Source of the DNA: Microcoleaceae cyanobacterium
GTDB taxonomy: Bacteria > Cyanobacteriota > Cyanobacteriia > Cyanobacteriales > Microcoleaceae
NCBI GenBank assembly: GCA_051652765.1
Contig: JBOFUV010000043.1
Coordinates: forward strand, 1 to 56,498
Direction: 5' to 3'
Length of the DNA stretch: 56,498 bases
Shown here piece by piece: positions 29,460-32,547 of the stretch. The notes beneath the pieces were generated by a model. That model saw nothing but the letters and a program-made list of their open reading frames with translations. It was not told the DNA's origin and did no database searches. Numbering within the stretch: the first letter of the stretch is position 1; each line of letters begins with the position of its first letter. Made by a program: the position numbers and the translations under genes.

Positions 29460-29651
29460 GTGTAAATTTTCAGGAACGATTTACTCAATTCTTGATAGCC
29501 TATCACTAATCTTGGAGGATTAGGGTTAATGGAGCATAAAGCCTAAACAATCAAAAAATTATAGTACCCATAATAGTTTTAGATCATGATTCTAGATGCA
29601 GCGATTTCTAAATCCGAACAAAAACGGCTGTAGTTGTCTTAGATGTGTTTA

Positions 29652-29693
29652 ATAAATATGTTTCTATAAATATGTTTCTATAAATGTATTTCT
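29652..29693. repeat. 14-bp tandem repeat x3 in an AT-rich divergent promoter region
   Basis: ATAAATATGTTTCT x2 plus ATAAATGTATTTCT. Confidence 0.8.
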
Positions 29694-30017
29694 ATAAGTA
29701 TGATTAATAAACACACTTATAGAATAGAGAAACGTGACTTTAATCAAAGAGACTTTTATGAATGAAATATTGGCCAACCCAGCAATTTTTCTATTTGCTT
29801 TCCAGTTGAATTTTAACGGCCAAAGTTATGCTTTAGTGAATCCAACTCTCTGGCAAATCTTAGGGATTTGAGAAGAAGATTCAGGACAGGTGATCGGCTT
29901 AAACAACCTGTAACTAAATGTTCCTAAAGAATGAAATCGCCAGAACCGACCATTTTTTTCATGATAGGATAAAAAAAGAATTGCTTCTCGTTTTCTAACT
30001 GCCAGTAATCAGCCTGC

Positions 30018-31721
30018 ATGTCACGCTTTGACTGTCCTTCTTTTAGCATTGCGATCGCCCGTCTCAGTACTTCTCTCAACATTTTAGAGGTTAACCATTT
30101 TGCAACTTGGATTGTTCAATCTCCTGACCCGAGTGGATATACTCATCATGACTCTGTTTGGCCAGATGAATTATCACAGGCTTGGAGAGCCTGGTTAGAG
30201 ATGTTTGCTCCCCACGGTTTGCCCCATCAGCTCTCTAAAACTTCAACCGTTGATTCCCTCAACAGCCTAGCCTCAGGAGTCGATCAAAAAAGTTACAGTA
30301 GTCGCCTGATGCAACACTTTGGCATGGGCCTATGGCAGTGGCTCTTTCAGGGCGCGATTCAGGCTAGTTTTCATCGTAGTCAGGGCATTGCCCTAGGTCA
30401 GGAGCAACCACTGCGGATTCGGCTAGATTTGCGAGAAGAAGATTTAATTCCCCTGCCCTGGGAGATCATGCAAGCTCAACCGGGTCAACCGGCGATTTCT
30501 TTGGGTCAGCAGATTTTATTTAGTCGAACAACCAGTGAGGTCAATCCCCTGCCCTCTCAGTTTCAATTGGCCCAATCCTTAACGATTTTGTTAGTGATGG
30601 GTCAACCGGAAACTAACTATTCAGGCAATTTAGAGGTTGGCGGTGGCTATGACGTTCTGAGGACTCCCAAACCATTACAGCTTGAACAGGAAGCCGAGCA
30701 GTTGCGGCAAGTCCTGGAAAAAGGGAGGTCTACCGACGGAACAGTTCCCTGTCAAGTTACCACTCTGATTCAACCGACGATTGCTGAACTGCTGGCCCAG
30801 CTCAAAACCCAAGCTTACAATGTTTTGTTTTATGCAGGACATGGGGTTCCAGCTCCCGATGGCGGATTGTTGTTTCTCCGGCCTGGAGTTGCTCTAAATG
30901 GTACAGAGTTGGCCCAAGTGTTGGTTCAATGTGGGGTGACGTTAGCCGTGTTCAATGCCTGCTGGGGGGCTCATCCTGCCATCGAACCCGTACCTGAGAT
31001 GGCCCCATCTCTCCCCAGAATGTTTCAGGCCATTCCAGGAAGTAGTTTGGCTAAGGTGCTGATTCACCATGGTGTTCCGGCAGTGTTAGGGATGCGGGAT
31101 GCAATTGCTGATCACGAAGCCTTGAGTTTTATTCAAGCCTTTGCCCAAGCTTTGACTGAACGGTGTCCCATTGACCAAGCTGTCTTGATCGCCCGCCAAC
31201 AGTTGTTGACGCTGTATAAGTTCAATCAACCTGCTTGGACATTGCCCGTGTTGTACATGCATCCAGAATTTAATGGACAGTTAGTTCACCCGACAGAAGA
31301 AAATCGCACCGAGCTTCCGGTAAATTCTCACACTTGGCTCGGTCACTCCCTCCAACGAGCCTGGTTACGCACCCCCAACGGATCAACCGAGATTACTTTT
31401 CCCCAAAGCTGGCCCATTGCAGCCGGGAGTGTGCGGGTGGGTCGGGGAGATGATAACGACGTGGTCATTCCAGAACAGTGGGTTTCCAGTAAACATGCTG
31501 AGATTTATTGCCGCAATGGTCAAGAAGCAAAACCGACTTACTTTCTACGGGATTTTTCCCGGTATGGAACTTTAGTTTGGGAAAAGCCCCAGGAGAAAAT
31601 CCAGGAAAAAACAACTTGGCAGCGGGTGCATCATCAGGAAATTTCCCTGGAATCCGGAACTCAGTTAAAATTTGGCAGTTCCCAGGGGCAAGTGCTTGAA
31701 TTTATTATTGAAATCCTGTAA
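30018..31721 (+). CDS. HetF-like CHAT (caspase-fold) protease with a C-terminal FHA domain
   Basis: LFQG...QGIA...LRIRL...LPWE; His/Cys dyad in FYAGHG and FNACWG; AVLGM; FHA motifs GR..., VSSKHA, LRDFSRYGT. Confidence 0.85.
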   Translation: MSRFDCPSFSIAIARLSTSLNILEVNHFATWIVQSPDPSGYTHHDSVWPDELSQAWRAWLEMFAPHGLPHQLSKTSTVDSLNSLASGVDQKSYSSRLMQHFGMGLWQWLFQGAIQASFHRSQGIALGQEQPLRIRLDLREEDLIPLPWEIMQAQPGQPAISLGQQILFSRTTSEVNPLPSQFQLAQSLTILLVMGQPETNYSGNLEVGGGYDVLRTPKPLQLEQEAEQLRQVLEKGRSTDGTVPCQVTTLIQPTIAELLAQLKTQAYNVLFYAGHGVPAPDGGLLFLRPGVALNGTELAQVLVQCGVTLAVFNACWGAHPAIEPVPEMAPSLPRMFQAIPGSSLAKVLIHHGVPAVLGMRDAIADHEALSFIQAFAQALTERCPIDQAVLIARQQLLTLYKFNQPAWTLPVLYMHPEFNGQLVHPTEENRTELPVNSHTWLGHSLQRAWLRTPNGSTEITFPQSWPIAAGSVRVGRGDDNDVVIPEQWVSSKHAEIYCRNGQEAKPTYFLRDFSRYGTLVWEKPQEKIQEKTTWQRVHHQEISLESGTQLKFGSSQGQVLEFIIEIL

Positions 31722-31789
31722 CGTCCTTCTGAAGCAATCAGAATTGCGGAATTGCTCAGGTTGAGGCTGTAGCTAGGGAGGTGAGGTCA

Positions 31790-31951
31790 ATGCAAGACCG
31801 ATCACCACTCAGGATTGTGAATTCACACTTGAATTCACATTTGAATTCACACTTGAATCTACGCTTGAATTTGCACTTGAATCCAACCCGTGGGAAATGT
31901 TCTGGCTGCCTGAGTCAGTCAGAATGCCCAAATCACAAAGACGACCTCTAG
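31790..31951 (+). CDS. Putative 53-aa microprotein (NSHL repeats plus CxxC-x5-C-x2-H)
   Basis: Manual translation MQDRSPLRIVNSHLNSHLNSHLNLRLNLHLNPTRGKCSGCLSQSECPNHKDDL; GGAGGTGAGG just upstream of the ATG. Confidence 0.4.
   Translation: MQDRSPLRIVNSHLNSHLNSHLNLRLNLHLNPTRGKCSGCLSQSECPNHKDDL
31819..31883. repeat. 12-bp tandem repeat, about 5 degenerating copies
   Basis: TGAATTCACACT-type units. Confidence 0.8.
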
Positions 31952-31974
31952 ATGACTGATAAGGAAACGATGCT

Positions 31975-32547
31975 ATGACACGAGAGATTTCCCCATTTGA
32001 AACCCAGGCTGAACTCGATCTGCTAGATGCTCTGTTCCAACCCGAGCAACTCTATCCGATTAATCCACTGGAACCCGAGGCAGAAGCCAGGTTATCTCAG
32101 CTAGAAGAGAGATTCTCAGTTACCGACTGCTTGACCGATGCTGAGGTACTAGAGAAATCTCAGACCTTGCTGACCCACATCGATCGGTTGTGGTTGATCC
32201 CGCAATTGCAGAAGTCTCTCCAGCAAAGATTTGCCCAGTGTATGCCTCGGCATCTCCTGTATCAGTTGGTGCAAAAGGGAGTGGAGATGGCAGCGAGCGG
32301 GGTATCCTTTGCTGATCAGTTGGTACAGAGCGCACAAGCCGCACTCCCCCAATGGCAGGAAGAAGATCTGTGGGTATTAGCTCGTCCCTTTGCCTATGCG
32401 ATGCGGGGAGACACTTCCCCAGAATCCGCCCTAGCTACGATGCAATCCCGAGACTGGGCAGATCTCTCAGAAGTTGAACAAGCAAGAGTGAGTTTAATGA
32501 TCGCTTGTGCAGCTCTCTCAGAACTTGCGGCCCTAGAGCAAGATTAG
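31975..32547 (+). CDS. Conserved cyanobacterial hypothetical protein, possibly PatU3-related
   Basis: AAGGA RBS; helical protein with LARPFAYAMR and WADLSEVEQARVSL; by-eye similarity to the PatU3 N-terminal domain. Confidence 0.7.
   Translation: MTREISPFETQAELDLLDALFQPEQLYPINPLEPEAEARLSQLEERFSVTDCLTDAEVLEKSQTLLTHIDRLWLIPQLQKSLQQRFAQCMPRHLLYQLVQKGVEMAASGVSFADQLVQSAQAALPQWQEEDLWVLARPFAYAMRGDTSPESALATMQSRDWADLSEVEQARVSLMIACAALSELAALEQD

Follow-up and report, generated by a model that had tools for sequence, protein, structure and literature searches.

A predicted cytosolic CHAT-FHA protease gene and a gene for a PatU3-like protein of 190 amino acids (aa) lie side by side on contig JBOFUV010000043.1 of a Microcoleaceae cyanobacterium (assembly GCA_051652765.1); the whole contig, 56,498 nucleotides (nt), is the window analysed here. 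We propose, with moderate confidence, that the pair supplies the protease and the anti-sigma factor of a three-part switch, a paralogue of HetF/PatU3/sigma-HetZ, in which HetZ-related protein 2 (HetZ_rel_2 in NCBIfam), encoded elsewhere in the genome, is the sigma factor. In Anabaena sp. PCC 7120 the trio corresponds to All1730 (protease), All1729 (small protein), and All4254 (sigma). The first-pass annotation of the window had suggested a second, cytosolic HetF/PatU3-type pair encoded together, and this suggestion held. A probable hetF (contig C46) and hetZ-patU (contig C3) are present elsewhere in the genome, so that the pair in the window exists alongside the known system. The first-pass annotation overlooked HetZ-related protein 2, the probable third component, and the small gene's own predicted promoter.

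The CHAT-FHA protease

Positions 30018-31721, forward strand: CHAT-FHA cysteine protease, predicted cytosolic, HetF paralogue and All1730 orthologue (Pfam, NCBIfam, conservation, synteny).
Positions 30324-31223, forward strand: CHAT domain.
Positions 30840-30842, forward strand: codon of His275.
Positions 30960-30962, forward strand: codon of Cys315.
Positions 31431-31676, forward strand: FHA domain.

By its domain and dyad the 567-aa product is a CHAT protease (clan CD, HetF/separase-like), and cutting after arginine is predicted. The CHAT domain (PF12770) covers residues 103-402 (E = 1.3e-19; 71.1 bits against a Pfam cut-off of 24) and the FHA domain (PF00498) covers residues 472-553 (E = 2.6e-11). 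The motifs that had been quoted as an intact His/Cys dyad are in the translation, and His275 and Cys315 align with the HetF dyad and are kept in all 81 rows of an orthologue alignment that is heavy in Microcoleus. Asp365 is kept in 79 of the 81 rows and is also an aspartate in HetF; by analogy to separase, we take it to be a candidate residue of the arginine pocket. The Gly-Arg and Ser-x-x-His motifs of the FHA domain are conserved as well (G475 in 81, R476 in 79, S490 in 81, and H493 in 81 of 81). Among solved structures the good matches were FHA domains only, and a CHAT chain was matched at E = 1.5.

The nearest paralogue of the protease in the genome is HetF (E = 2e-28; next 4e-11), in agreement with its earlier description as a HetF-type protein. 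It was rejected as the HetF orthologue itself, since the NCBIfam HetF model NF045509 matched residues 80-436 only (151 bits against a cut-off of 1200) and the protein lacks the membrane helix and the tetratricopeptide repeats (TPRs) of HetF. The probable orthologue is the 815-aa protein on contig C46, which scored 828 bits and is itself under the cut-off. As had been noted, no membrane helix is evident in the window protease: the highest 19-residue hydropathy was 1.52, inside the catalytic core, in a crude scan that did not treat the HetF membrane segment alike.

The small protein is a remote homologue of PatU3

Positions 31975-32547, forward strand: 190-aa PatU3-like protein, All1729 orthologue, predicted anti-sigma factor and protease substrate (HHalign, hidden Markov model (HMM), BLASTP).

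The small open reading frame (ORF) is co-oriented with the protease gene. Databases label its product hypothetical, and no Pfam family was found in it at E <= 0.1. The first-pass annotation had pointed out a likeness to PatU3; the PatU3 text it gave agrees with the peptides printed in Dataset S3 of PMC13342950 except for one residue, and profile comparison bore the likeness out. HHalign of the small-protein family against PatU gave a probability of 45% with shallow alignments and 67% with 147 rows, and reached 81-88% (P 1e-5 to 1e-6) when 147 small-family rows were compared with 133 PatU rows. Against a score of 38.7 for the real template, reversal gave 24.0, and none of 25 block shuffles exceeded 20.8. 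At E < 1e-3 the HMM of the PatU N-terminus picked up 34 of the 147 family members and no reversed sequence. Moreover, the sole second match of the small-family profile in 301 genomes was, unprompted, the patU gene of one genome (G116, E = 5e-4).

The alignment to PatU is colinear over about 150 columns and includes a (Y/F)PW motif, two prolines, an arginine, and the helical core; the Trp of (Y/F)PW, present in 141 of 147 family rows, is Ile in the window copy. It ends at the start of the PatU C-terminal domain, so that the small protein corresponds to the N-terminal 156 residues of PatU3 and lacks the C-terminal domain of about 100 residues. The window protein was rejected as the PatU/PatU3 orthologue, which would stand downstream of hetZ, have about 260-330 aa, and carry the C-terminal domain; the true patU adjoins hetZ downstream on contig C3. 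By sequence comparison, the small protein and PatU3 are distant homologues, and the former is a PatU3-like paralogue and not PatU.

The similarity might instead be a convergent helical pattern, with the adjacency functionally neutral. The identity to PatU/PatU3 is 22-25%, and helical proteins score spuriously (a designed helical bundle at E = 0.017). Two results count against our reading at this point: the window protein alone matched the PatU HMM weakly (E = 0.015, rank third among 10,606 ORFs of the genome), and an unrelated protein outscored it (E = 0.0013). The second-best match of this HMM in the genome, on contig C34, looked on inspection like an Hpt-domain protein, and we treated it as a false positive. 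However, the reversed and shuffled controls were negative, the match is colinear with its motif, prolines, and arginine, and the parallel context (a HetF paralogue, a HetZ paralogue, and a HetZ-like promoter) did not enter the alignment. Convergence is thus scarcely probable.

Several other searches added little. Comparison of the small protein and of HetZ-related protein 2 with solved structures gave no match at E <= 0.001, Atlas matches were unnamed cyanobacterial clusters only, and there was no plasmid match. A suspected likeness of the PatU C-terminus or the small protein to DUF1822 was unsupported, with a two-sequence profile only. The 150 best representatives of the small family were 118-287 aa long.

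The predicted cut site

Positions 32404-32406, forward strand: codon of Arg144, predicted cut Arg144|Gly145, aligned with PatU3 Arg117|Ser118 (alignment, conservation).

HetF is reported to cleave PatU3 between Arg117 and Ser118, with little dependence on the residues flanking the arginine (PMC9457339). We fixed the numbering of PatU3 Arg117 on the Dataset S3 peptides. Arg144 of the small protein shares the column of Arg117 in every alignment made, and the cut-site arginine is conserved in 139 of 147 small-family rows and 125 of 133 PatU rows. Arg137 in the same motif is kept in 145 of the 147 small-family rows.

HetZ-related protein 2

In the source genome, the orphan gene for HetZ-related protein 2 is at G000:C54:10910-12007. 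The hetZ gene beside patU on contig C3 scored 645 bits, over the cut-off, and a HetZ'-like gene is on contig C19. HHalign of HetZ_rel_2 against HetZ gave 99.7% over residues 103-378, which span regions 2 to 4 with the i2 and i3 insertions. The residues for core binding and for the -10 element are kept (Asp109 in 35, Gln112 in 36, Arg156 in 40, and Arg167 in 40 of 40); they were mapped to D131, Q134, R175, and R190 of HetZ through the Dataset S3 numbering and the text of PMC13342950. The HetZ -35 residues R291, D294, Y295, and Q298 become Lys, Tyr, Arg, and Glu. Since these residues of the -35 helix are replaced, a different promoter specificity is expected for HetZ_rel_2. With the HetZ model, HetZ-related protein 2 scored 77 bits versus 482 bits for HetZ'.

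There were several side observations on this gene. A gene with MshEN and partial T2SSE domains follows it in 26 of 53 loci (L145-L195), a weak hint of surface or pilus functions. In many other loci small BMC-like genes (ccmK-type by eye) precede it. In L157 (G038:C1:154000-168000), hetZ, patU, a gamma-glutamyl cyclotransferase gene, and the gene for HetZ-related protein 2 are clustered, possibly a trace of duplication. Second copies were found at L193:1707-4133 (G144) and G278:C9:112521-113648, in frames of 809 and 835 codons, and the second copy in G144 has N-terminal TPRs.

Distribution and linkage of the three genes

The survey covered 301 genomes of the phylum. Of these, 83 have the small gene, 83 have the protease orthologue, and 82 have both; in an 84th genome, G220, the protease search gave a HetF-level match only. 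HetZ_rel_2 is in 84 genomes, the exact union of the small-gene and protease sets, and all three are in 82. PatU was found in 71 of the 301 genomes. In 64 of the 82 genomes the two genes are neighbours in the same orientation, no more than 1 kb apart, and in 76 of 80 loci from named genomes they are adjacent; the first-pass annotation had left this conservation to be checked.

In 13 genomes HetZ_rel_2 is present without a match for HetZ, HetZ', or PatU. In 12 of them the CHAT-FHA gene is the only match of the HetF model, and the thirteenth (G011) has a broken hetF. Conversely, G220 has HetF, PatU, HetZ, and HetZ' and none of the trio. Together, these 13 genomes and the counter-case of G220 indicate that the two systems are gained and lost as separate units.

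In G041, a HetZ match lies within a 943-codon open frame (G041:C1:3382045-3383067), and there is no PatU match in this genome.

A predicted HetZ-like promoter upstream of the small gene

Positions 31745-31751, forward strand: predicted -35 element TGCGGAA of an extracytoplasmic function (ECF)/HetZ-type promoter of the small gene (de novo motif, matrix score).
Positions 31768-31775, forward strand: predicted -10 element TGTAGCTA, 16 nt past TGCGGAA (motif and sigma-HetZ consensus).
Positions 31818-31885, forward strand: 12-nt tandem repeats that could fold into a hairpin, within the 5' leader predicted for the small gene.

When 40 deduplicated regions upstream of the small gene were searched de novo, a single bipartite word dominated, GGAA-N17-GTA, present in 33 of them; comparable words reached at most 8 in a shuffle. 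The full motif, T[AGT]CGGAA-N16-TGTAG(C/T)T, was found at 10 or more of 13 positions in 38 of the 40 regions. Its strict form was in 36 of 40 small-gene regions, against no occurrence before the genes of the protease (0/23), the sigma (0/35), patU (0/13), or hetZ (0/13). The de novo search likewise found no conserved promoter motif of the protease or sigma genes, and there was no excess of sigma-70 promoters or terminators in the region. The window site at 31745-31775 is the top matrix match in the genome (30.7 versus 23.9 for the next, partly by construction), and transcription of the small gene would, by analogy with the sigma-HetZ consensus, start near 31779-31781.

The sigma-HetZ consensus is TCCGGA-N16-17-TGnA-N7-9 (PMC13342950), and the motif found here is one base off. 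In the HetZ-less genomes that keep the motif, HetZ_rel_2 is the only HetZ-like protein; of the 13, the eight examined all retain the motif, partly diverged at -35. Away from the small gene, 31 of 76 matches examined stand 12-200 nt before a new ORF, and half-site controls for this placement, from the source genome alone, gave 10.2% and 6.5%. The 23 genes chosen from those after the motif included three for Ser/Thr kinases, three for caspase-domain proteins, and others for a TPR protein, DUF1822, DUF928, an L,D-transpeptidase, a GH10-like protein, and a band-7 protein. No widely recurring orthologous target was found other than the small gene, and the largest other clusters had 3 of the 76 matches. 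The second-best site in the source genome (G000:C13:32630; L232:1563-2228) is 34 nt before the gene of a 222-aa protein without a Pfam family, a candidate regulon member.

The proposed switch and its alternatives

The observed elements are the domains, the dyad, the PatU3 homology with its aligned arginine, the adjacency, the distribution of the trio, and the bipartite motif, and from them we infer all of the interactions. The 190-aa protein probably binds HetZ-related protein 2 and would silence it. A phosphothreonine set by a Ser/Thr kinase would be read by the FHA domain and would activate or target the protease, and a PP2C phosphatase such as PrpJ would remove this signal; for such switching of the protease the chances appear even. 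Cleavage of the 190-aa protein by the CHAT-FHA protease is likely, and a cut after Arg144 would free the sigma factor. The freed sigma would transcribe a small regulon together with its own inhibitor gene and so reset the switch; it is likely to read T[AGT]CGGAA-N16-TGTAG and to re-induce its inhibitor in the way that sigma-HetZ induces patU. Rather than acting on cell division, the switch probably controls a regulon that is small, varies between lineages, and encodes envelope, secreted, and signalling proteins.

A number of observations weigh against this switch. The motif around Arg144 is conserved throughout, and thus the conservation of Arg144 need not mean cutting. The pair is separated in 18 of the 82 genomes. 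Because kin share gene sets, co-occurrence overstates the association; the counts are of genomes rather than of losses on a tree, and genomes that are related do not count as independent cases. G204, an assembly of 270 contigs, has no small-gene match. Residues 1-102 of HetZ_rel_2 did not align with HetZ, and the HetZ i1 domain has no aligned counterpart. At the position of the Asn of the FHA Asn-Gly motif, where Dun1 has Asn, the protease rows have Tyr (75 of 81) or Phe (4 of 81). The PP2C neighbour known from other loci is absent from this window. In G011 the small gene, its arginine, and the sigma are kept and the protease is an FHA remnant (L197:3675-3851), and in no compared genome is the sigma gene adjacent to the small gene or the protease gene. 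Outside the small gene, the exact promoter pattern is in only modest excess (111 matches versus 68 in the reversed control in 36 sigma-bearing genomes). Finally, an anti-HetZ chromatin immunoprecipitation (ChIP) peak in Anabaena spans all1729, with an enrichment of 5.1-fold in the wild type that falls to 4.2-fold when hetZ is mutated. The peak is ambiguous: as it is kept in the mutant it is independent of intact HetZ, and both cross-reaction and background fit.

The G011 genome also bears on the possibility that the small protein is an anti-sigma factor that its neighbour does not cut: it might inhibit the protease or serve as its adaptor, or be cut by HetF or by an FHA-PrsW protease. There the small protein persists without the protease, and a gene for an FHA-PrsW protease converges on the small gene in 13 of 80 loci. 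Cross-cutting is also conceivable given the low dependence of HetF on the residues around the arginine (PMC9457339). However, CHAT-FHA is the sole HetF-like protein in 12 genomes, and the arginine is kept in the seven of them with the motif printed or aligned; the adjacency of CHAT-FHA (76 of 80) is also far above that of FHA-PrsW. We therefore regard this possibility as improbable. In the same genome, the hetF at G011:C28:52848-54332 lacks its catalytic middle, so that both proteases are lost in one genome.

Similarly, since the sigma gene is unlinked to the pair, the two proteins might be protease and substrate, with the substrate governing another target, another ECF sigma such as SigG reading the promoter, and shared ancestry explaining the distribution. 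In 6 of 80 loci the next gene after the small gene encodes an ECF-like sigma, and GGAA-N17-GTA resembles the general form of ECF promoters. Furthermore, all4254 is reported to fall about twofold in a sigG mutant (PMC4390870). The exact set equality over 301 genomes, the counter-case of G220, and a motif one base from the sigma-HetZ consensus speak for HetZ-related protein 2 instead. In addition, although sigG-sapG is reported to be widely conserved (PMC2758279), the motif was unenriched in the 13 genomes without HetZ-related protein 2 (5 matches versus 10 in the control), where the presence of SigG was unscored. Another sigma factor is thus unlikely.

The pair might also duplicate the cell-division arm of HetF/PatU3, with the small protein inhibiting the divisome until the protease removes it. 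PatU3 is reported to block septal synthesis and to bind Ftn6 (PMC9457339), and all1729 was initially listed among ten filament 'core' genes and then dropped (PMC2821919). The protease, however, is without the membrane anchor and TPRs of HetF, the small protein is without the C-terminal domain of PatU3, and no division gene recurs among the neighbours. The role in cell division raised by the first-pass annotation was therefore not supported, and we consider it very unlikely.

Comparison with known systems

The proposed three-part switch resembles HetF/PatU3/sigma-HetZ of Anabaena sp. PCC 7120 in the HetF-type CHAT dyad, the PatU3-type helical domain with an arginine at the cut position, the HetZ-type sigma core, and a promoter of the form T.CGGA-N17-TG.A before the inhibitor gene (PMC9457339, PMC13342950, PMC8406250). 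The differences are also clear. The window protease is cytosolic by prediction and has an FHA domain, whereas HetF has a membrane helix and TPRs. The inhibitor is shorter than PatU3 by its C-terminal domain and is encoded beside the protease rather than the sigma. HetZ_rel_2 has another region-4 helix and another N-terminus than sigma-HetZ, and its predicted promoter has T[AGT]CGGAA at -35 and TGTAG at -10, unlike the -35 TCCGGA of sigma-HetZ. Moreover, the trio is present in genomes without HetF/PatU/HetZ. Sigma-HetZ' (Alr0202, NCBIfam HetZ_related) is likewise a HetZ paralogue located elsewhere in the genome, but it is inhibited by PatU3 and reads HetZ promoters, whereas All4254 is far more distant from HetZ and travels with the pair.

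CHAT proteases are also coupled to the release of ECF sigma factors in Csx29-Csx30-CASP-sigma of type III-E CRISPR. A CHAT/caspase fold is coupled to ECF sigma release in DdvA-DdvS of Myxococcus (PMC6061681), and gene neighbourhoods with caspase, ECF sigma, and DUF1822 have been reported (PMC8195603). The present locus differs from these in having no CRISPR, TPR sensor, or DUF1822, and no sequence match to Csx29-Csx30, DdvA-DdvS, or the proteins of the DUF1822 neighbourhoods was found.

Neighbouring genes and the Anabaena counterparts

In Anabaena 7120 the gene order is reported as all1731 (prpJ), all1730 ('CHAT domain-containing protein'), all1729 (hypothetical), and alr1728 (PrsW family) (PMC13056922, PMC6161253). 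A PP2C gene precedes the pair in 12 of 80 loci and an FHA-PrsW gene follows it in 13; both neighbours recur in further families, which speaks for the proposed switch. The window protein matched P0455 (BAB73428.1, 214 aa) by BLASTP at E = 1e-31, and the assignment of P0455 to All1729 rests on protein length, contig, and synteny. Reports on single members of these loci include alr1728 as a Fox gene (PMC4005646) and all4254 in a table of signature proteins (PMC2823733). No account of the pair or the trio was found in the literature searched, whose scope excluded subscription papers; the 2007 PrpJ paper may mention all1730. The tree of HetZ homologues in Fig. S4A of PMC13342950 may include All4254. 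The available text of PMC8406250 names no HetF paralogue.

An example of the ECF-like sigma-70 gene downstream of the small gene, co-oriented with it, is at L071:7093-8280. At L207:3249-3752, the small gene of G190 is divergent from a homologue of a 179-aa gene (L002:2856-3392) that stands divergently upstream of hetZ in the source genome. In the window, three 14-nt tandem repeats at 29646-29705 with an inverted arm (29644-29724) lie in the AT-rich stretch that separates glgX from the protease gene.

Implications

That HetF-PatU3-sigma-HetZ forms the core of the control of heterocyst fate is a recent finding. From sequence, many cyanobacteria, including Anabaena, apparently hold a second and so far apparently unstudied copy of this protease/inhibitor/sigma switch. 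Tentatively, it may be a more widespread circuit in which phospho-gated All1730 cuts All1729 at Arg165 and frees All4254, which would have its own promoter class. The heterocyst switch would then be a sister copy, and the module would link Ser/Thr phosphorylation at the PrpJ locus to sigma release. With a complete paralogous circuit in this model organism, a predicted cut site, sigma partner, and promoter consensus would assign a function to three genes that lack annotation. If true, it would add a new sigma factor and promoter class for cyanobacteria and show the origin of the heterocyst switch. It would also tie the PrpJ/alr1728 locus, both genes of which are needed for aerobic nitrogen fixation, to transcription, and the FHA-gated CHAT protease would be a new coupling of Ser/Thr phosphorylation to anti-sigma proteolysis.

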